NCBI GenBank assembly: GCA_964536515.1
Contig: CAZHXI010000001.1
Span: forward strand, 31,480-95,479
DNA: 64,000 nucleotides
Origin: an uncultured Gammaproteobacteria bacterium
GTDB taxonomy: Bacteria; Patescibacteriota; Patescibacteriia; CAYZDG01
Direction: 5' to 3'
The notes below the pieces were generated by a model. The model worked only from the letters and a program-made list of their open reading frames with translations. It was not told the DNA's origin and searched no databases. This document shows, piece by piece, positions 2,757-55,813 of this stretch; within the stretch, counting starts at the first letter, position 1; each line of letters begins with the position of its first letter. A program made the position numbers and the translations under genes.

Positions 2757-5700
2757 ATGGAGCGGCGACGATTGAGCGGCTTGATCCTGGGGACGCTGGT
2801 AGCAGCTGCACTGCTCGGCACAACCCTCATAGCTACGGTCAGCGTAGCCAGGCTGCGAGAGCGGGCGTTCGCCGCCGTTGGTTTCGGTGGAACTGGAGCA
2901 ATTCTGAAGACGATCACGCAGGGTTCCGGAGCCGCAATTGCCACGCCAGGATTCCCCGTCGTTGCAGACCCGGGTGTACGTACGCAGAACTTCTTAAGCT
3001 CGCTGGGCGATGCGATTGGCTCGGCGCTTGAGAGCAGCGGCAAGCTGCTGGTGAAGAATACGCTGTCGCGCTTCTTGGGTGAGCTGGCGCGCGGCACGGC
3101 GGAGTGGATTGCTACCGGCAGCCCGGGCCAGATGCCGCTGTTCGAGACGCAGGGTGGGTACGAGTTCATGGCGGCGACGCGTGACGCGGCTACCGCAGAG
3201 TTCCTAGATAGCCTGGGCAGCGCCTACGGCGTAGACGTGTGTAACCCCGAGCTCGGCGCCAAGCTGGTCATCCACTACAGCAGCCTGCCGTCTAGCCGTC
3301 TGGATACCCCCCGCTGCTCCCTGAAGCAAATTCAGGAGAACTGGGCTGAGCTGCTGCCGAATAACCAGGCCTTCCTGCAGCGGTTCAGCGCCGCACTGGA
3401 GCCAGACCAGAACGACCTGGGCATTGCGCTGACCCTGGAGAAGAAGCTGGTGGTAGAGCGCGAGACCAAGGCGAACGCCGCCATTCTGGAGCGGCTAGAG
3501 TCGCAGGGCCTCAAGCCCCTGAAGGACCTCGCCGGTAATATTGTGACCCCGGCGGCGGCGGTGAACGAGCAGATACGTCAGACCCTAGGCTTGAGCGCGC
3601 AGAAGGAGCTGTCGTTCATCGGCGACCCGGTGGCGGATGCCATTGGCATATTCACCAACACCCTGGGCAACAGGCTTCGAGAGAAGTGGCTGAAGCAGGG
3701 CTTCGTGAACATTGCCGACGTATTCAATCGCACCGGCAGCAGCGGCGGCCTGTTCGGCGGAGCCGGGCGCTACAGCGTGGCCGAGCCCCGGTTCGCTGCG
3801 CTGGCCGGTTTGGAGCTGGGAACCTCGGGATCAATCGACGTCGTCGGCGAGCTGTCTGCGTGCTCGGACCCCGCAGACCCGGGGTTCGGCAACCAGTGCG
3901 TGCTCGACCCCTCCTTCGCGCAGGCGGTGCAGCAGCAGCTGACGGTACGCGAGGCAATGGAGCGCGGCTTGCTACGGGGTGAGTGGGCGTTCGGCTACCT
4001 GCAGGACGGCAGCGAGCCTCGCTACGGCACCGGCTACCCGTACTCGGCAATGGTCGTCATGCGCACCAAGCGCATCGTTCCGGTCGGCTGGGAGCTGGCG
4101 GCGCAGGCAGCCAAGGCATTCGGGCAGGGCGTTACCTTGGACCACGTGCTGCACTGCTACGAAGATCCTGCGGCCGCCGGCGATGGATCGCGTCCGGTGG
4201 ACTGCCAGATTAACGGCATTAACCCGTTCTACCACCTGGTAGACCCCAACTGGCTGCTCAAGGTTCCGGCCACGTACTGCGTGCGGCGCGGCGCCAGCGC
4301 CGAGCTGCTAACCGAGGAGTACATCTGCAACCAGGACACGAACGGCGATAGCTTCGTGGACTGCGTGAACCTAGATTCGAACATCAACGGCATTGCCGCT
4401 CCGGTCGATGGGGATCCGAGCTCCAAGGATGAGTACCTCAGGGTGATCCAACGGGCCGAGTACTGCGCCGACGAGCAGAGCTGCATCGCCGAGAACGCCG
4501 ATGGTACCTGCCGCGCCTACGGCTACTGCTTCGAGGAGAAGCAGACCTTCAGCCTGGGGGACAATGCCTGCCCGTCGCAGTTCGCCTCGTGCGTGGGCGT
4601 AACCACGCCCAGCGGGCAGCAGACCGCCTACATCCAGGACAGCGTGCAGACCTGCCCCACCGGAGCCGCTGGCTGCCAGTGGTACAGCCGTCGCAAGAGC
4701 GGCGCCAACTGGAGCGTCGCCCCCACCGACCGCATCTACCTCAACTCCGAGGCGGCAACCTGCAGCCCCGACGACGCCGGCTGCCGCAAGCTGCTGCGCT
4801 TCGGCCAGGGCACCAACCTGGTACCCAACGGCGGCTTCGAACAGTACGACCGCCACCTGCCCAGCGATCCGAATGGCACAGATAACTTCTTCATCAACGG
4901 CGGCACGGCACGTGGACGGGCCTACACCAACGCGGCCGATGTGTACGAGGGGCAGGCATCGTTCCGCCTGACGCGGTCCGGTAGCATCAGCGTGCTGGCC
5001 GAAACGGGCAGCGAGGTAGCGGGCCGAACCTTTACCGCCTCGGTTGCCAGCAAGAACTGCACCGCCGGTTCGCTGTCGCTGCTGGACGGCGACGGGGGAG
5101 CCATTGGTGCTCCGGTCAACCTGCAGATTAGCGGGCCCGACACAGACAACGGCCAGTGGCACACCGCTACTATTACCGGCACCACGCAGGCGCCGGGCAC
5201 CAGCCTTACGGTGCAGGTTACCGGCCTCAATGCCTCGGTGGATTCCGACTGCCTGCTGGACTCGCTCGCCCTGACCGAGGGTTCGGCGAGGGCTACGCTG
5301 GCCTACGGCGCCGGACGTTCGGTGCACATTAGCAGCCGAGCCACGCAGTGCAGCCAGGACGACGTGGGCTGCCAGGCCTTCGTGCCGACGAGCGGCGACC
5401 CCACCGTGTTCGGCCGTATTACCGCCAACGATTACTGCCCGGCGCAGTGCGTGGGCTACCAGAACTACAGCCCCCTCATCAACACCTTCGAGGAGCGCGA
5501 GGGTGCGTCCGCCCCGGCGCCGTCTAACTTCATTCCCTCTACCGCACGCAGCTGCAGCGCCGTTGACGTGGGCTGCAGCGAGTTCACCAGCCTGGCAGAG
5601 GTGCCGGAAGGCGGCGAGCGGGTAGCCTACTTCAGCCAGGTGCAGCAGTGCGTGCCCGAGGCGACGCCGAGCGTGGGTACCTACTACACCTGGGAGGGCA

Positions 5701-43417: not shown

Positions 43418-46400
43418 TTATCCAGCCAAGAATCGCAGCGCCTCTTCGATCTTCGGCAGCACCTTGCCGCCCAGGGCGTCTTGCCTGGCGCGCAGCACCG
43501 CATCCTTTGCCTTGAACTCCCACTCGGGGTGCAGCTCCATCCAGCGCAGGGCCGAACCCACGGCGGCGTCGTGCCCCAGCTTGATGCGTACCCAGCGTGT
43601 CTCGATTCCATCGAAGCCGCGGCTGGCGGTGCTGTCTACGCCGACTACGCCGGCGGCGCGGCACAGGACCTTCAGCTTCAGCACGGCTAGCAGGTTATCC
43701 AGCGCGTCCAGCGGCATGCCCACGAAGCGCGCGTGCACGTCGTCGGCGTAGCGCTGCAGGCCTGCCTCGTCCTCGTTGGCCAGCTGCTGGTACAGCCGCA
43801 GGCGGTTGGCCTGGTCTGGCTCCACCTCTGCGGGAATGTACGCGGAGAGCGGCAGGTCAACGGCCACCTCCTGCTCGTCCGGCGGGGGACGGTTGTCGCG
43901 CATGCCCAGCAGCGTCTCCTCCAGCAGGCGGCTGTACAGGTGCAGGCCCACGCTCACCGCCGGGCCGTGCTGCTGCTTGCCCAGCGCGTTGCCCACGCCG
44001 CGTAGCTCCATGTCGCGCACGGCAATTTGGAATCCAGACCCCAGCGCGTTGTGCTGCAGCAGCGCCTTCAGCCGCTCGTTGGCCTGGCCCACCAGCTTCT
44101 GGCTGGGGTAGAGGAAGTAGGCGAAGGCCTGCTTGCCGCCGCGGCCCACGCGGCCGCGCAGCTGGTACGCCTGCGCCAGCCCCAGCGCCGGCGCGTTCTC
44201 GATGATGATGGTGTTCACGTTGGCTAGGTCCAGGCCGTTCTCCACGATGGTGGAGCACACCAGCACGTCTACCTCGCCCTCGTCGAAGCGGTGCATCACC
44301 TCCGCCAGCTTGTTCTCTGGCATCTGGCCGTGGCCGATGTCGAACCGCGCCTTGGGCACCAGCTTCTGTAGCTGCTCGGTGATCAGCTTGATGCGCGCCA
44401 CCTTGTTGGAGACGAAGTAGGCCTGGCCGCCGCGGGCTAGCTCCCGCTCCAGCGCGTCTTTGACCACGTCGTCGCTGTACGGCAGCACGTTGGTCTCGAT
44501 CGGCAGGCGCCCCGGGGGCGGCGTCTCGATGGTCGAGATATCCTTGAGGCCGGACAGCGCCATGTTCAGGGTGCGCGGGATGGGCGTCGCGCTGAGCGCG
44601 AGAACGTGGCAGCCGGTACGTAGGTTCTTTAGCTGCTCCTTGTTCTTCACGCCAAACTTCTGCTCCTCGTCGATGATTGCCAGCCCCAGGCGCGAAAACT
44701 GCACGTCCTTCGAGAGGATGCGGTGCGTGCCGATGGCGATGTCCGCCGAGCCCTCGCGGATCGCCTTCACCGCTGCCTTCTGCTCGGCGCTGGACTGGAA
44801 GCGGGTGAGGGCGACGCAGCGCACGCCGAACGGCTGCAGCCGCTTGTTGAAGGTGTCTAGGTGCTGGGTGGCGAGCACGGTGGTGGGGCAGAGCACGCCC
44901 ACCTGCTTGCCGCCGCGCACGGCCTTGAAGGCGGCGCGGATGGCGACCTCGGTCTTGCCGAAGCCTACATCGCCCGCCAGCAGCCTATCCATGGGCGCGT
45001 CGCGGCGCATGTCGGCTAGGATCTCGTCTACCGCCTGCTGCTGGTCTGCCGTGGGCTGGTAGGGGAACGACCCGGCGAGCTTAGCTTCGTCTGGGTGGTC
45101 CGGCAGGCCGAAGCCGCCGTGCACCTGCCGCTTCGCCGCAGCCATTAGAATCTGCCGGGCCAGCTCGCCCGCCTCTACCTTTACCTTCTTCAGCGCCGCG
45201 GCCCAGGCGCCGCCGCCGTCCAGCTTAGACAGGGGCGGGTTAGCCTGGCCCAGGTAGCGGGTGATCCTATCTGCCTGCTCCACCGGCAGGTACAGCTTGC
45301 CGCCGCCGGCGTAGTCCAGCTGCAGGTAGTGGCGGACGGCGCCGTCCAGCGGCTTCTCGCACAGGCCGGCGAACCTGGCCACGCCGTGGTCTACGTGCAC
45401 CACGTAGTCGCCCTCCTTCAGCGCCTGGGCCGTAGCCTTGGCCAGCTTGCGGCGGCGGTCCTGCACGTCGTGCCGGCTGCCCAGCAGCTCGAAGTCGGTG
45501 AGCACCATGATGCGGTTACGCTCGTCGCGGAAGCCGGTGAGACCGCGTACAGATTCCGGCAGGCTGGCCACGGCAACGTCCGATATCCCGTGTCCGGCTA
45601 GCTGCTGCTTCAGCTCCGGCGCCTGGCTGGAGAGGGCCAGAACCTGCCATCCGTCTGCGCCAATCTGGTCGCAGTCGAACTTCAATTCGTTCCAGCGACG
45701 GTGGTACACGCGTACGGGCTGGCCGAATCCATCCGCTCCCGCCGTCCACGTTACGTGGCGTACGCCGGGGTTAACGCGGAACCCCAGCTCGGCGTTCAAA
45801 GCTGGGGTGGTGAGCAGCGTGCTGCGCTCGGATAGGTACGACAGGCCGGTAGCTGCCTTGGCGTAGGCCGGCATGTTGGGGGGAGTAATGGCGACGCTGG
45901 TAGCGGCCTCCAATTTACCGTCTGCCCCCACCAGGCTAATTCGCTCAACCGACTTGGCGGAGAACTCAATCCGTGCGGCGAGGTTCAGCTTCTCTAGCCA
46001 TACGTCCACGGTGCCGCCGCGCACGGCTACCAGCCCGGGCTGGTCTGCCAGCGTGGCCCGGCTGAAGCCCTGGGGGATGAGGCGGTCCAGCAGGTCTGCC
46101 GGTCGCATCCTGGCGCCGGCGTGCACGGTTACCACGCTGCTGCGGAAAGATTCGGGGTGCATGGCTTTGCCCGTGAGCGCGGCGATGGTGGTTAGGATGA
46201 TGGCCGGCTCGTTCAGCACCAGGCGGTGCAGGACCACGGGACGAGGCGGCTGCACCGCGGGCCAGACGGCAATGCGATCGCCGTCCGCAAGCCAGCTGCC
46301 AGCCAGCTGTTCGCCCCATAGCTTCAGCGCCTCCTGCGCCAGCTTCAGCTGCCACTCGTCCTCTACCAGCCAGAACACCGGGCCGGCCGGTCCGCCGCTG

Positions 46401-46531
46401 GGCCAGCTCGCCACCACCAGGGCCTGCTGCGTCAGCGTCAGCACGCCGGGGAGCACGGTGTTGCTCCCGCTCTGGCTGAGCGGGTGGTTCTTCCACGTGA
46501 GCTTAAGTTTTTGCTCGGATTTTTCGGGCAC
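43418..46531 (-). CDS. mfd: Transcription-repair coupling factor Mfd
   Basis: 1037 aa. UvrB-homology N-terminus; RNAP-interacting domain; SF2 translocase motifs (GDVGFGKTEVA, IIDEEQKFG, QLRGRVGRG); C-terminal TRCF domain. Confidence 0.9.
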   Translation of the reverse strand: MPEKSEQKLKLTWKNHPLSQSGSNTVLPGVLTLTQQALVVASWPSGGPAGPVFWLVEDEWQLKLAQEALKLWGEQLAGSWLADGDRIAVWPAVQPPRPVVLHRLVLNEPAIILTTIAALTGKAMHPESFRSSVVTVHAGARMRPADLLDRLIPQGFSRATLADQPGLVAVRGGTVDVWLEKLNLAARIEFSAKSVERISLVGADGKLEAATSVAITPPNMPAYAKAATGLSYLSERSTLLTTPALNAELGFRVNPGVRHVTWTAGADGFGQPVRVYHRRWNELKFDCDQIGADGWQVLALSSQAPELKQQLAGHGISDVAVASLPESVRGLTGFRDERNRIMVLTDFELLGSRHDVQDRRRKLAKATAQALKEGDYVVHVDHGVARFAGLCEKPLDGAVRHYLQLDYAGGGKLYLPVEQADRITRYLGQANPPLSKLDGGGAWAAALKKVKVEAGELARQILMAAAKRQVHGGFGLPDHPDEAKLAGSFPYQPTADQQQAVDEILADMRRDAPMDRLLAGDVGFGKTEVAIRAAFKAVRGGKQVGVLCPTTVLATQHLDTFNKRLQPFGVRCVALTRFQSSAEQKAAVKAIREGSADIAIGTHRILSKDVQFSRLGLAIIDEEQKFGVKNKEQLKNLRTGCHVLALSATPIPRTLNMALSGLKDISTIETPPPGRLPIETNVLPYSDDVVKDALERELARGGQAYFVSNKVARIKLITEQLQKLVPKARFDIGHGQMPENKLAEVMHRFDEGEVDVLVCSTIVENGLDLANVNTIIIENAPALGLAQAYQLRGRVGRGGKQAFAYFLYPSQKLVGQANERLKALLQHNALGSGFQIAVRDMELRGVGNALGKQQHGPAVSVGLHLYSRLLEETLLGMRDNRPPPDEQEVAVDLPLSAYIPAEVEPDQANRLRLYQQLANEDEAGLQRYADDVHARFVGMPLDALDNLLAVLKLKVLCRAAGVVGVDSTASRGFDGIETRWVRIKLGHDAAVGSALRWMELHPEWEFKAKDAVLRARQDALGGKVLPKIEEALRFLAG

Positions 46532-46683
46532 AGTCGTGCGCTAACCAGTCATCCTCCGCCCCTTGGGGGGCGGTCGGTAGATAAATACTAGGGTAGGGGC
46601 GGCGGTTTAGCAAGCGGGCTTGATATCCGACCGGGCCCGGGTCTAGTCTTAGCGCGTCGCCCTTTCACCAACCCGGAGACAGC

Positions 46684-46854
46684 ATGGCTGCCAACAGATC
46701 GTTCGACCCGAACCATCCAGTGTTCTCCCGCTATCCGAACTGCACTAAACGCTTCGCCTGCGCCGCCCTCGGCCGTCGCCAGAGCCACAAGCTGCGGTGG
46801 CGCCGTATTCGATCGCACATCAGCGAGCGCGCGTTCTCTTTCAAGAAGTGGTAA
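46684..46854 (+). CDS. Small highly basic 56-aa protein (candidate nucleic-acid-binding protein or peptide), not in the ORF track
   Basis: GGAGA SD 6 nt upstream of the ATG. MAANRSFDPNHPVFSRYPNCTKRFACAALGRRQSHKLRWRRIRSHISERAFSFKKW; followed by a CTCCCCCGTT-CC-AACGGGGGAG hairpin at 46862-46883. Confidence 0.4.
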   Translation: MAANRSFDPNHPVFSRYPNCTKRFACAALGRRQSHKLRWRRIRSHISERAFSFKKW

Positions 46855-46900
46855 CCGTAACCTCCCCCGTTCCAACGGGGGAGTTAGCTATACCCTAGTA

Positions 46901-46929
46901 TTGACGAAATATGATAAATGTGCTAATAT
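46901..46929 (+). promoter_or_regulatory. Strong sigma70-like promoter in a very AT-rich island (TTGACG-17-TAATAT)
   Basis: -35 at 46901-46906, -10 at 46924-46929; AAAGGAG SD before ATG 46978. Confidence 0.55.
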
Positions 46930-46977
46930 ATATTTATTAGGTAAACCTTGAAAACCAGTTCCAAAAAGGAGAAAAGA

Positions 46978-47646
46978 ATGGAAGCTTGGATTTTTGCAAA
47001 CAAACTGACGGTAGGTTTCTGGTCGGCCATCGTGGCCAGTGGATTCTTAGCCCTGTGCTTCGTGACCGTGCTCGTGACTCGTGCCATCAGAGCCAGATCG
47101 TTCAGGCGCGCGACGCTGGCGAAGCTCAGCAGCGTAGCAGCAGAGCTCGGCCAGCTCGCTGGCCAGTTGCAGTCGAACGACTTCGTCCGCAAGCAGGCGC
47201 TGGATCGTATCGTTGACTTCTTCGATACGGTCAGCCGATGGCACGACCGAGATGCCGAGCTGGCGGCGATCATTGCCGACCTGACGGCGTTGAACAGGCG
47301 GAATGATTACGACGGCGTGCTGCGAGACCTGGCCACGCTGCGGGCTCACCTCAACAATGCCGGCCGCTCGCCATACGGCTTGAACAGGACTAAGCCGGGA
47401 GAGCGGGTTACAGCTGACAGCGTCTACCTGGGTGATATCTTCGGCCTGTGGACCAAGACGGTTGCGTACTGGAAGACGACGGCCAGCGAGCCGAAGGACC
47501 AGTGGCGCGGCGGGATGTGGGCTGGGCACAACGGCGTGGCGGGCAAGAACTGCTACGACGTCGTCTCCACTCAGGCCGCAGATTTCATGGCCGGACACAT
47601 CGGACCGATCGTCGAGCTGGCGGGCAAGGTTCAGCAAGCGCGTTGA
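46978..47646 (+). CDS. Hypothetical single-pass membrane protein (accessory)
   Basis: N-terminal TM WIFANKLTVGFWSAIVASGFLALCFVTVLV then a ~180 aa soluble domain. Start at ATG 46978 with SD. Confidence 0.5.
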   Translation: MEAWIFANKLTVGFWSAIVASGFLALCFVTVLVTRAIRARSFRRATLAKLSSVAAELGQLAGQLQSNDFVRKQALDRIVDFFDTVSRWHDRDAELAAIIADLTALNRRNDYDGVLRDLATLRAHLNNAGRSPYGLNRTKPGERVTADSVYLGDIFGLWTKTVAYWKTTASEPKDQWRGGMWAGHNGVAGKNCYDVVSTQAADFMAGHIGPIVELAGKVQQAR

Positions 47647-47653
47647 ACTAACA

Positions 47654-47681
47654 GGCCCCGGTCGCAACTGCGACCGGGGCC
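47654..47681. terminator. Bidirectional terminator hairpin GGCCCCGGTCGC-AACT-GCGACCGGGGCC between convergent genes
   Basis: 12-bp perfect stem between 46978..47646(+) and the dsbA-like gene(-). Confidence 0.6.
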
Positions 47682-47745
47682 TTAACTCTATCAAGCTAGA
47701 TCTCTCGGCTCGTCGCTACGCTCCTCGCTCGGGATGACGAGCCTT

Positions 47746-48486
47746 TTAGCTGGCCAGCAGCTGGTCCAGCGCGCTCTTGATCTGCGCGAAGGGCACGGCG
47801 CCCTCCAGCGGAATCTTCTGGTCGCCGGTCAAAATGACGCTGTAGGGCGTACCCTGGGCGCCGGCTGCGGCAGCGGCGGCAATATCGTCCTGGATCTTCT
47901 GGCTGTACTTTCCCGAGCTCAGGCAGCTCTCGAACTTGGCGCGATCCAAGCCGACCTGCTGGGCGATCACCGGCAGCTGCGCTGCATCTAGGCCGTTGTT
48001 CGCCGGCGTTACCTCGTAGATCTTGTCTAGGAAAGCCCAGAACTTCTCGGGGCCGCCCAGCTCGTTGGCGCACTCCGTAGCCTCGGCCTCCTTGACCGCC
48101 TTGGGGTGGATAGAGGTCAGCGGGAAGTGGCGGTAGACCCAGGCCACCTGGTCGCCGTACTCGGCGACTACCTGCTTGAGCGTGGGGTGGAAGTCCTTGC
48201 AGAAGGGGCACTCGGTGTCGGAGTACTCTACGATCGCCACCTTGGCTTTGCTCAGGTCGCCGCGGACGTGGTCCGCATCCGTTACCGGCGCAATGACGAT
48301 GTTGCCCTGGCCCTGCTGGCCGGTATTGTCCGTGGGTAGGTTGCCGCCGTTGCCACCGAACTTGGTGCCGGTGTCCTTGGTCAGCGTCCAGACGAAGCCG
48401 GCGGTTCCGGCAATGAGTAGGCCGAACACCAGCCCGACCAGGAAGATGTTGAGCGGCGTAAGTTTGAACGGGGACTGTTCGTCCAT
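47746..48486 (-). CDS. DsbA-like thiol:disulfide oxidoreductase (membrane-anchored thioredoxin fold)
   Basis: N-terminal TM; CPFCKDF CxxC active site; VYRHFPL…HP region. Confidence 0.75.
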   Translation of the reverse strand: MDEQSPFKLTPLNIFLVGLVFGLLIAGTAGFVWTLTKDTGTKFGGNGGNLPTDNTGQQGQGNIVIAPVTDADHVRGDLSKAKVAIVEYSDTECPFCKDFHPTLKQVVAEYGDQVAWVYRHFPLTSIHPKAVKEAEATECANELGGPEKFWAFLDKIYEVTPANNGLDAAQLPVIAQQVGLDRAKFESCLSSGKYSQKIQDDIAAAAAAGAQGTPYSVILTGDQKIPLEGAVPFAQIKSALDQLLAS

Positions 48487-48557: not shown

Positions 48558-48580
48558 TATCATTGACACTAATTAGCATA
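48558..48580 (+). promoter_or_regulatory. Promoter-like motif TTGGTATCATTGACAC (shares TGGTATCATTGAC with the 56861 motif)
   Basis: 13-nt identity with 56866-56878. Lies in the AT-rich divergent region between dsbA-like(-) and 48640(+). Confidence 0.4.
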
Positions 48581-48639
48581 TATGATATAAAAGTTACGTA
48601 ATTGAACCAGAACGACCAAATTAGAGAGTAGGAGGAGCA

Positions 48640-49233
48640 ATGAGCTCAAGTAAAAGACGGCTCGGCGGCTGGGGAATGTGCGGTATTATTGGCCTCGCGG
48701 TAGTGGCGCTGATTGCGCTCACGAACCTCAACCCAGGCCTGTGGCAGGCGATGAAGGGAGCGGGAATTCGGACGAATTCGGCGATGGCGTACATCGCCAT
48801 TTCACAGCCCCAGGCTGTCCACGCGTTGCTCGAGGGTGAGCTGGAAGAAGTCGCCTCCGACGATCCCGGTGTGGACCTGTGGTCTCCTGATCGATTCAGA
48901 GAAGCGCGCAGCATCAACGAGAGCTGCTGGACGAGGTCTAACTACGGCCTGCTACGCATCGATCGCCGCGGTGGCCGCAGTTACCTGGAGCTCTCCCCGA
49001 ACGGCAACCACACGGTATGGGAGACGTACGGGGAGCTGACGGCGGCAACGGAGCAGTCCGTAGCTGCAGCGGGCAAGCCCAATTTGGAGACGTTCCTCTC
49101 CGGCGGGCGGGTAGCCTGGGGGACGCTCAGCGTCCACCTGGCTGGTAGGAACCCCGACGACGCGACGGCGATCGCGGCAATGTTCATTCCGTACGGGACG
49201 CCCGAGGATTTCGTTCTCACCCCCGACGAGTAG
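48640..49233 (+). CDS. Hypothetical membrane-anchored protein
   Basis: AGGAGG SD; N-terminal hydrophobic anchor MCGIIGLAVVALIALT. Confidence 0.45.
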   Translation: MSSSKRRLGGWGMCGIIGLAVVALIALTNLNPGLWQAMKGAGIRTNSAMAYIAISQPQAVHALLEGELEEVASDDPGVDLWSPDRFREARSINESCWTRSNYGLLRIDRRGGRSYLELSPNGNHTVWETYGELTAATEQSVAAAGKPNLETFLSGGRVAWGTLSVHLAGRNPDDATAIAAMFIPYGTPEDFVLTPDE

Positions 49234-54869: not shown

Positions 54870-55144
54870 CGTGAAGCCAGTGAGGGATGGAGAGTTAGAT
54901 GTTATGATTGACTTATCATAGTAAATATGCTACTATAGAATTATAGTATATACTTTGAAAAATTTGATTTTTCGATAATGTCACCCATAGCTTTAGCGAA
55001 GGGTGGTAGCCCTAGCCACGAGGTCAGGGAGGGGTCATCCTCTCGCTGCGTCCTGGCTACGGCTACCTAGGTTGGAGCCCACTGGCGAGTAACAGACGTG
55101 TCCCCAACTGTGGGGACGGGTCAAAAAACAAGAAGGAACGTGTC
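54870..55144 (+). promoter_or_regulatory. Very AT-rich promoter island followed by a ~190 nt GC-rich hairpin-rich leader
   Basis: AT-rich 54890-54990 (…gctactatagaattatagtatatactttgaaaaatttgatttttcgataatg…); hairpin GTCCCCA-ACT-GTGGGGAC near 55095-55115. Confidence 0.4.
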
Positions 55145-55813
55145 ATGAGAAATGACGAGTTAGTTCTAGGAGCTACGCAGGCGTACGAGCTCCAGGCGAG
55201 TTTGCGCAAAGCCGGGTACACGGACGGAGAGCTCAAGGCCCTATCTGGCACCCCGTTTCTGTCGAAGGTGCTCACGGTCATTCGTGGGCAGGCGACCATC
55301 CAGGCTCTGCCGCCCGCCGAGCAGGCGCCCGTCACGCCGTTCGAGCCCAAGGTCTTCAAGACCATCAAGCTGGGCGAACACAAGTCCCACAAGGACTACC
55401 GCAAGGCCATGGAGAAGGCGGGCTTCCGCATCGGCGACTACGCGGTCCAGATTCTGGAGAAGGTCACGGTGGCGAGCGAGCCCACCGAGCTGGACCTGGT
55501 GGTCGTGACGGTCGGCGAGCTCGGATTCAAGGACGGCGCGCGGCGAGACGCCATCTACGAGAAGGCCCTGAGCCTCGGGCTGCAGCTCTGCCCGAACGAA
55601 GTCGGCCCGGCACTGCGCCTGGCGCACCCGGACCAACCCATGAACGAGTGGCTGCGCGTCGGCATGGAGCCCCTCACGGACTCGGGCGGCGGCCTCTACG
55701 TCTTCTGCGTGGACCACGACGGCAACGGGCGCTGGCTCGACAGCTACTACGGCGAGCCCGACCTCGTTTGGAACGCTGTCAACCGCTGGGTGTTCGTCCA
55801 GCCCCGCAAGTAA
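55145..55813 (+). CDS. Hypothetical protein (accessory)
   Basis: 222 aa; no recognisable motifs. Confidence 0.45.
   Translation: MRNDELVLGATQAYELQASLRKAGYTDGELKALSGTPFLSKVLTVIRGQATIQALPPAEQAPVTPFEPKVFKTIKLGEHKSHKDYRKAMEKAGFRIGDYAVQILEKVTVASEPTELDLVVVTVGELGFKDGARRDAIYEKALSLGLQLCPNEVGPALRLAHPDQPMNEWLRVGMEPLTDSGGGLYVFCVDHDGNGRWLDSYYGEPDLVWNAVNRWVFVQPRK

Follow-up and report, generated by a model that had tools for sequence, protein, structure and literature searches.

A likely small basic protein gene beside a promoter–terminator slot with interchangeable genes, between mfd and a dsbA-like gene of an uncultured bacterium

In integrons and in replacement-type flexible genomic islets, a fixed promoter is combined with interchangeable open reading frames (ORFs). 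Short ORFs may also encode leader or arrest peptides, such as TnaC and SecM. Phage morons are independent units with their own promoter and terminator that are inserted between other genes (PMC3594210). The locus described here can be compared with each of these systems. It is located in a 64-kb stretch of DNA (65% GC; contig CAZHXI010000001.1), referred to below as the window, whose positions serve as coordinates throughout. The locus consists of a 56-codon frame (the small ORF) and a downstream gene for a 222-residue protein on the same strand, and is flanked by mfd and a dsbA-like gene. The first-pass annotation of this stretch regarded the two genes as an inserted two-gene module, either toxin/antitoxin-like, abortive-infection-like, or a regulator with its target. 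Comparison with related loci suggests a different arrangement. The small ORF is likely translated and selected as a protein within a restricted lineage, and the evidence leans toward two independent transcription units, a small-ORF gene and an expression slot with exchangeable cargo, rather than one module.

Relatives were collected using a word-indexed search of 5.8 billion proteins, followed by look-ups of the encoding contigs. The search yielded 10 relatives of the 222-residue protein, while the small ORF is called in just 3 clusters. Five independent syntenic metagenomic loci are found beside mfd (L003, L004/L005, L006, L007, and L090); L001 and L002 represent the same strain as the window. 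Samples with these contigs include SRR12487045, SRR28714611, SRR29499864, ERR12080972, and SRR24236061. The 222-residue protein of L003 is 74% identical to that of the window, L007 is more distant and lower in GC, and L090 is an NCBI metagenome-assembled genome whose Mfd is 93% identical in amino acid sequence to the window Mfd. The gene order is the same in all loci: a divergent mfd, a GC-rich spacer, a Shine–Dalgarno (SD) sequence and ATG, the small ORF, a GC hairpin, an AT-rich promoter, and a gene on the same strand. The small ORF is missing from all other loci fetched. Additional searches included a search of metagenomes for a DNA pattern anchored in the mfd leader (0 matches), a genome-contig scan with Mfd, which returned distant relatives (at most 45–46% identity among the matches listed), and a protein search with the Mfd N-terminus, which returned one near-identical fragment only. 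The description of the small ORF as unannotated holds for L003 and L007, where it is uncalled, and for L090, where an antisense ORF is called instead, but gene calls from JGI and Logan include it as a hypothetical protein.

The small ORF (46684..46854, + strand; 56 aa) has orthologues in L003, L004/L005, L006, and L090 and a positional analogue in L007, and it is judged to be real from the comparison with relatives, not from the openness of its frame. The five orthologues are 55–56 codons long, with start and stop codons in register. Pairwise ratios of nonsynonymous to synonymous substitution rates (dN/dS; Nei–Gojobori method, NG86) are 0.28–0.43 for the small ORF; the same pairs of genomes give 0.10–0.28 for dsbA, pth, and the N-terminus of mfd. 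The mean ratio of nonsynonymous to synonymous differences per site (pN/pS) is 0.60 in the small-ORF frame, compared to 1.03 and 1.01 in the other two frames, and codons that vary only synonymously number 13 in frame as opposed to 5 and 2. This signal is most pronounced at the ends of the frame, as the first 6 and last 17 codons contain 11 synonymous-only codons in frame and 1 in each of the others. The N-terminal sequence MAANRS is preserved through GCT/GCC, GCC/GCA, and AGA/CGT exchanges (the last at Arg5), while in the C-terminal segment RIRSHIxxRAFxFKKW both RIRSHI and FKKW are preserved through third-position changes. The middle 33 codons drift almost neutrally without insertions or deletions; relative to L090, their DNA identity is 55–58% while that of mfd is about 85%, and the ORF aligns without gaps whereas the non-coding flanks are gapped. 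This pattern indicates purifying selection on the first 6 and last 17 residues, with the 33 residues between them forming a fixed-length, basic, otherwise free linker. Base composition is in agreement with this frame, as GC content at the third codon position (GC3) is 0.73–0.79 and is the highest of the three positions in five of five orthologues, and weakly so in the L007 analogue. In the window the small-ORF GC3 is 0.79, compared to 0.76–0.91 for neighboring genes. The antisense frame has the opposite GC3 pattern and is not coding-like; a 95-aa antisense ORF (46588–46875) was considered as a true gene and rejected, since GC3 is lowest in that frame and stop codons interrupt it in L090. The analogue in L007 is a 48-codon basic ORF at the same position that begins with MAA, has an isoelectric point (pI) of 12.0, and is preceded by a strong AAGGAGG. 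The first-pass annotation had named absence of conservation in related genomes as the result that would count against the small ORF; the substitutions found in relatives are instead frame-specific and protein-like.

The small ORF appears to have its own transcription signals. Upstream of it is mfd (43418..46531, − strand), which encodes the 1037-aa transcription-repair coupling factor (Pfam CarD_TRCF_RID, DEAD, Helicase_C, TRCF, and UvrB_inter) and serves as a conserved, divergent anchor gene. Two putative promoters located by eye stand back to back between these genes: TTGCTA-17-TAGTAT for mfd (46585..46613, − strand; −35 at 46613–46608, −10 at 46590–46585) and TTGATA-18-TAGTCT for the small ORF (46620..46649, + strand). 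In the alignments, the former is found at the same place as TTGCnn-17-TAsTAT in L003, L004, L006, and L090 and as TTGCCT-17-TATGGT in L007, and the latter as TTGnnn-17/18-TAnnnT in all six loci, with T, A, and T of its −10 hexamer (alignment columns T5, A6, and T10) invariant. Both would be weak, sigma-70-like promoters whose hexamer positions are kept in six of six loci; against them, both fall below the threshold of the promoter scan. Their position suggests that the small-ORF transcript probably starts from its own promoter, divergently from mfd, with a leader of ~28 nt. The SD sequence GGAGA (46675..46679, + strand) has 5 nt between GGAG and the ATG, and all relatives retain a GGAG motif 4–7 nt upstream of the ATG despite changes in the neighboring bases (GGAGAGAG in L090, AAGGAGG in L007). 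The encoded product has a pI of 11.8, 14 Arg and Lys residues versus 2 Asp and Glu residues, and a grand average of hydropathy of −0.94.

Seven nucleotides past the stop codon is a GC hairpin (46862..46883, + strand), which is presumed to act as the small-ORF terminator and as an insulator before the next promoter. It is a perfect 10-nt inverted repeat (46862–46871 / 46874–46883) that occurs once in the window and not at all in 100 shuffles, and is folded by RNAfold into 9 bp with a 4-nt loop. The stem is kept in six loci while the loop varies and the top pair swaps between G-C and U-A, and the gap from stop codon to stem is 7–10 nt in all six. Weighing against termination, a U-run is missing both here and after the hairpin that follows the 222-aa gene, and for this reason the terminator scan made no call for the small-ORF hairpin; termination at both hairpins is presumed. 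In the proposed scheme, a modest promoter back to back with that of mfd would give a transcript translated from its own SD sequence and closed by the GC hairpin, and the product would be a 56-residue, strongly basic, probably alpha-helical peptide.

The second unit begins 17 nt beyond this hairpin, where the promoter scan identifies a strong sigma-70-type promoter, TTGACG-17-TAATAT, with an extended −10 element (TG) (46901..46929, + strand). GC content is 0.22 over 46901–46946 and 0.29 over the entire gap of 46884–46977. The promoter and the first ~25 nt of the transcript form the best-conserved stretch of the intergenic region in six loci, whatever gene follows. In the window the gene that follows (46978..47646, + strand; GGAG at 46968–46971) encodes the 222-aa protein, a membrane anchor with a helical bundle. 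The slot gene is a 184-aa lipoprotein gene in L004/L005 and encodes a 403-aa protein with a signal-like N-terminus in L090, and neither product is related to the 222-aa protein. Loci that differ in cargo are homologous exactly up to CCTTGAAAA (46946..46954, + strand), the final conserved bases of the shared 5′ untranslated region (5′UTR) as determined from the alignment and the L090 sequence. At the right border, each of the three cargo types is separated from the dsbA-like gene by the same hairpin, GGCCCCGGTCGC..GCGACCGGGGCC, with compensating stem changes in L090. In the window, an inverted-repeat search places a perfect 14-bp hairpin at 47653..47682 (no strand assigned), between the convergent cargo and dsbA-like genes. 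The latter (47746..48486, − strand; Pfam Thioredoxin_4 and DSBA) encodes a DsbA/thioredoxin-like protein and is syntenic in L003 and L004. The slot interval extends from CCTTGAAAA on the left to GGCCCCGGT..ACCGGGGCC on the right. On this reading, the conserved unit is composed of mfd, the small ORF, the hairpin, the promoter, the terminator, and dsbA, and the ORF between the promoter and the terminator is interchangeable. The individual features read in the first-pass annotation are all present: the basic 56-aa ORF with the translation quoted there, its GGAGA and host-like GC3; the 10-bp-stem hairpin as an inverted repeat; the AT-rich promoter in its island of 0.22 GC; the 222-aa ORF with an SD sequence and a single membrane segment; and a position between mfd and a dsbA-like gene, both of which have Pfam support.

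The slot would therefore be described as a strong extended −10 promoter, ~25 nt of shared 5′UTR, and a shared terminator hairpin that hold unrelated genes in close relatives. Recombination within the conserved flanks would be the most likely route of cargo exchange. The sharp homology borders suggest replacement; they are also the sole ground for homologous recombination as the route, which is a point against it. A broader proposal is that the small ORF, hairpin, promoter, 5′UTR, and terminator constitute a dedicated expression slot of reduced genomes, a fixed and strongly transcribed landing site for integrase-free exchange of unrelated accessory genes among close relatives, with cargo partly shared with phages and the linked peptide acting as a slot regulator or insulator, or as a signal-sensing arrest leader. 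This proposal is speculative, and we consider it quite unlikely. With regard to the borders themselves, CGT TGA AC forms the end of two unrelated cargo genes, that of the window (47640–47647) and that of L004 (about 2443–2450), and the left border of the slot, CCTTGAAAA, is likewise marked by TTGAA. The heptamer GTTGAAC fits the integron core-site pattern GTTRRRY, is not present in L003 or L090, and has no integrase seen nearby; the match is probably a coincidence.

The proposal that the small ORF is a protein gene has to be weighed against the possibility that its frame is a by-product of GC-rich sequence, its ends being conserved as promoter, UTR, end-to-end mRNA helix, terminator, or small RNA. 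Several observations count against a protein: an open frame of 56 codons is not rare at this GC content (chance estimate of about 0.2), all five sequences are open in frame +1 as well, evolution of the middle codons is about neutral, and no sequence similarity can be detected between the L007 peptide and the other small-ORF peptides. The statistics are also thin, since there are five independent orthologues only; synonymous and nonsynonymous steps over the whole ORF do not depart from neutrality (p = 0.22), and the step count for the ends (p = 5e-4) concerns segments picked after seeing the data. Furthermore, a 10-bp helix between the 5′UTR (GGUCGCCCUUUC) and the last small-ORF codons is pairable in 96% of cells across five sequences. 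This helix was rejected as a signal, however, as it is equaled in 71 of 500 shuffles, and the presumed small-ORF transcript folds no better than shuffled sequences (z = −1.4). The alignment fold has a covariation term unfavorable to a consensus structure, and clear structural conservation is limited to the terminal hairpin. A known RNA in this region was likewise rejected. Rfam 15 identifies only four tRNAs in the window at gathering thresholds and chance-level matches in 46450–47050, the best being whalefall-1 (18 bits versus a threshold of 37) in the mfd leader hairpin and not in the small ORF, and ARAGORN finds no tRNA or tmRNA in the small-ORF region. In favor of a protein, variation at the ends falls at third positions, Arg5 switches between AGA and CGT, the SD sequence is kept in changed contexts, and the ORF has no insertions or deletions despite near-saturated divergence. 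A frame without function as a protein is consequently considered unlikely. A related alternative retains translation and makes the small ORF a regulatory leader, in which translation, perhaps with arrest at RIRSHIxxRAFxFKKW-stop, would control formation of the downstream hairpin and thereby transcript read-through or processing where this unit meets the slot promoter. The concentration of conservation in the last 17 residues, ending in Trp-stop with a body free to vary, is consistent with a leader, as is the fixed 7–10 nt distance from stop codon to hairpin. On the other hand, attenuation would add little where a strong promoter separates the hairpin from the next gene, single-sequence and alignment folds revealed no alternative (anti-terminator) pairing, and the L007 analogue does not have the C-terminal motif. 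Conservation at the protein level also extends to the N-terminal MAANRS, and arrest peptides do not usually need a conserved N-terminus. A leader is thus improbable.

The remaining alternatives concern the relationship between the peptide and its surroundings. The peptide could be a small DNA-binding protein that regulates promoters next to its gene, namely that of the slot, the divergent mfd/small-ORF pair, or both, as it is very basic, remains linked to mfd and the slot promoter whatever the cargo, and is accompanied in this genome by a perfect 12-nt inverted repeat (TACCCTAGTATT) that shares bases with the mfd −10 and directly adjoins the slot −35. That repeat is perfect in this genome only, the peptide has no recognizable DNA-binding domain, and the linkage may simply reflect inherited gene order, and so a regulator of this kind appears quite unlikely as well. 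The two-gene module of the first-pass annotation would pair the peptide with the 222-aa protein. In four of six related loci, the two genes are neighbors with the same orientation, and the 222-aa family, which has phage-encoded relatives, behaves as an accessory gene. The conserved hairpin and independent strong promoter between the genes argue for separate transcription units, though, and the genes are separable in both directions: the small ORF is kept beside unrelated cargo in L004/L005 and L090, and the 222-aa family is found in 88 other loci (73 metagenomic and 15 viral) in which tblastn with four small-ORF peptides detects nothing. The 222-aa protein has no match in PADLOC, Pfam, or NCBIfam and is predicted to adopt a generic helical bundle, not a toxin fold. 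A functional module formed by these two genes is therefore extremely unlikely, and that part of the earlier interpretation did not survive the comparison; in a weaker version, the peptide may act on the adjacent promoter and not on the cargo gene. Two transcription units, one with a likely protein gene and one with exchangeable cargo, remain the favored description.

The biochemical role of the peptide can be addressed only tentatively. An AlphaFold2 model built from 3 sequences predicts one long helix (residues 18–54), although the mean predicted local distance difference test (pLDDT) score of 68 marks it as a model of low confidence, which counts against placing weight on it. The peptide has no sequence match in Pfam, NCBIfam, or the PDB. 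A membrane toxin was considered and rejected, as the peptide is hydrophilic and has no hydrophobic segment; the hydrophobic, membrane-inserting character of type I toxins is thus not found. The best guess is that the arginine-rich helix might bind nucleic acid or the ribosome, a possibility that is doubtful at present.

Some additional observations concern the region around the small-ORF unit. The perfect 12-nt inverted repeat AATACTAGGGTA / TACCCTAGTATT (46584–46595 / 46891–46902) brackets this unit, its left arm overlapping the putative mfd −10 and its right arm abutting the slot-promoter −35. Relatives retain only ATAGTAG / CTATTAT of this repeat, pairable with one G-U on plus-strand RNA, and the window contains 3 matches at up to 2 mismatches versus about 1.2 expected. 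Transposon ends and a conserved operator were both rejected because the repeat is perfect in this genome only; it may be due to chance or represent a lineage-specific operator. In the presumed mfd leader (46532–46580, − strand), a GC hairpin (CCGCCCC-loop-GGGGCGG; 46556..46573, − strand, read from the sequence beside a GGAGGA motif) is kept in 5 relatives with a varying loop; the stem differs in L006 and is still self-complementary. The hairpin is followed by the SD-like GGAGGAUGAC, 20 nt from the annotated GTG start of mfd. This distance is beyond that of normal initiation, and a 3-codon mini-ORF (AUG ACU GGU UAG) directly follows GGAGGAUGAC, which in L004 continues in frame into mfd. The true mfd start may differ from the annotated GTG, or translational control may be involved.

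The 222-aa protein belongs to a sizeable family. A profile search of 1.84 billion representatives identifies 502 clusters at E ≤ 1e-3, of which 135 are at E ≤ 1e-30, and most members are 170–200 aa in length without an N-terminal anchor. The protein has no sequence match in Pfam, NCBIfam, PADLOC, PHROG, or the PDB, and, in line with the first-pass annotation, the Pfam and NCBIfam profiles place it outside known housekeeping families. A single hydrophobic segment covers about residues 12–34. In the AlphaFold model, which is confident (pLDDT 91), a long helix at the N-terminus is combined with a helical bundle into which a conserved loop, NAGR..G.NRT..GE.VT.D.VYLG..GLWT, is inserted, and fold searches with this model return generic helical bundles only. 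The charge is +5 after the membrane segment versus 0 before it, and this pattern, together with soluble relatives that do not have signal peptides, suggests that the helical-bundle domain probably faces the cytoplasm.

A metagenome scan identified 73 loci with relatives of the 222-aa protein, largely on low-GC contigs and including 0.1-micrometre groundwater fractions, and their hosts would be candidate-phyla-type bacteria. The genes appear to be monocistronic and are found in varied neighborhoods. In 31 of 36 loci, a promoter-like TTGAC-N16-18-TAnnnT, often with TG, is located within 330 nt upstream, in most cases about 70–170 nt from the ATG. A tRNA gene is directly upstream in 11 of these loci, plus L008 and L009. 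The tRNA-adjacent loci (L008, L009, L092, L096, L099, L101–L103, L120, L123, and L127–L129) have their own promoter between the two genes, and the upstream tRNAs are those for Gly, Trp, Leu, Lys, Ile, Arg, Ser, and Glu; by our expectation, such a position in about one third of loci is far above chance. Integrated elements were considered for these members and rejected, as no duplicated tRNA 3′ ends or att-like repeats were found. Phage relatives of 150–173 aa, some with an N-terminal anchor, are encoded on 15 IMG/VR contigs of 55–190 kb (L164–L178) and in GenBank MT835539.1 (L179), and hhalign relates them to the family over its conserved half (probability 97%, E = 9e-11). On one of these contigs (L172), the relative directly precedes a small membrane ORF and an ORF that is glucosaminidase-like by eye, a possible lysis cassette.

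Other AT-rich promoters and variable genes are present in the window. A 197-aa membrane-protein gene (48640–49233), driven by one such island, is located between the dsbA-like gene and pth. It is fast-evolving: its L004 counterpart (3416–3940) encodes 174 aa and shares 23% identity across 108 residues, in contrast to the well-conserved dsbA and pth on either side. The interval 54908–55144 (+ strand) contains a third AT-rich near-consensus promoter, TTGACT-17-TACTAT, followed by a GC-rich leader of ~200 nt (minimum free energy −83.1 kcal/mol, z = −5.1, 0 of 200 shuffles, no Rfam match), which is a candidate structured RNA or leader. It precedes an uncharacterized 222-aa ORF (55145–55813). In L004 an S21-like gene directly follows HisRS, indicating that the 54908 region is also variable. 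The second 222-aa ORF was rejected as kin of the slot protein, being unrelated by inspection of the translation and without a Pfam or PHROG match. In all three islands (48565–48640, 46901–46954, and 54908–54960) the AT-rich spacer ends in ATATG(C/A)TA, and a TTGAA(A)A element is found about 20 nt past the −10.

Taken together, a promoter/terminator pair that holds three unrelated genes beside an Mfd that is 93% identical marks a local hotspot of gene replacement. The 222-aa family, with ~500 clusters, is missing from Pfam and NCBIfam, is common to candidate-phyla-type bacteria and phages, and is consistently found behind a near-consensus promoter. Neither result bears on a long-standing question. 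If translated, the small ORF extends the small-protein content of uncultured bacteria, which is poorly charted, by a basic protein specific to one clade, and its peptide offers a clean example of constrained ends around a drifting middle of fixed length.

Comparison with known systems helps to define what each unit resembles. Like small basic proteins (bL34, bL36, bS22, and orphan small proteins), the small ORF encodes ~50 residues with a very high pI and many arginines, has its own SD sequence, and is monocistronic. It differs from the small basic ribosomal proteins in having no sequence or profile similarity to them, in being restricted to one narrow clade, and in evolving almost neutrally over two thirds of its length, and no Pfam or NCBIfam profile assigns it to a ribosomal or other curated small-protein family. 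As in TnaC and SecM, a short ORF has a conserved C-terminal segment that ends near an RNA hairpin; unlike in those systems, a strong promoter intervenes, only the terminal hairpin is stable with no alternative structures found, and the N-terminus is conserved too. Type II toxin–antitoxin pairs also consist of two small, adjacent, same-strand genes, one of which is very basic. In contrast to the single-promoter operon of such pairs, the genes described here have separate promoters, with a hairpin (46862–46883) and a promoter (46901–46929) between them. They are not inherited jointly, as the small ORF is found with a lipoprotein or a 403-aa protein in other loci; neither the gene sizes nor the gene order is typical of such pairs; no toxin or antitoxin domain rises above noise in Pfam, NCBIfam, or PADLOC; and the PADLOC defense and abortive-infection models return only a chance-level Csn2 match (E = 0.041).

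Like integron arrays and replacement-type flexible genomic islets, the slot combines one fixed promoter at a single chromosomal site with unrelated ORFs that can be interchanged. It differs from integron arrays in being a single slot, with immediate neighbors (mfd, dsbA-like, pth, and der) that do not include an integrase. No attC-like sites or integrase were identified beside the slot, a systematic tyrosine recombinase or attC search not having been made, and the exchange would be explained more simply by homologous recombination in the conserved flanks than by an integron route. Finally, the 222-aa gene resembles the phage morons (PMC3594210) as a single gene bracketed by a strong promoter (46901–46929) and a hairpin (47653–47682) between housekeeping genes, and its family is patchy and also found on phage contigs. 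It differs in that no prophage surrounds it, its neighbors being mfd, dsbA-like, pth, and der, and in that the promoter and terminator belong to the chromosomal slot and are kept when the cargo changes. The 222-aa gene is consequently a replaceable accessory gene that is moron-like by structure.

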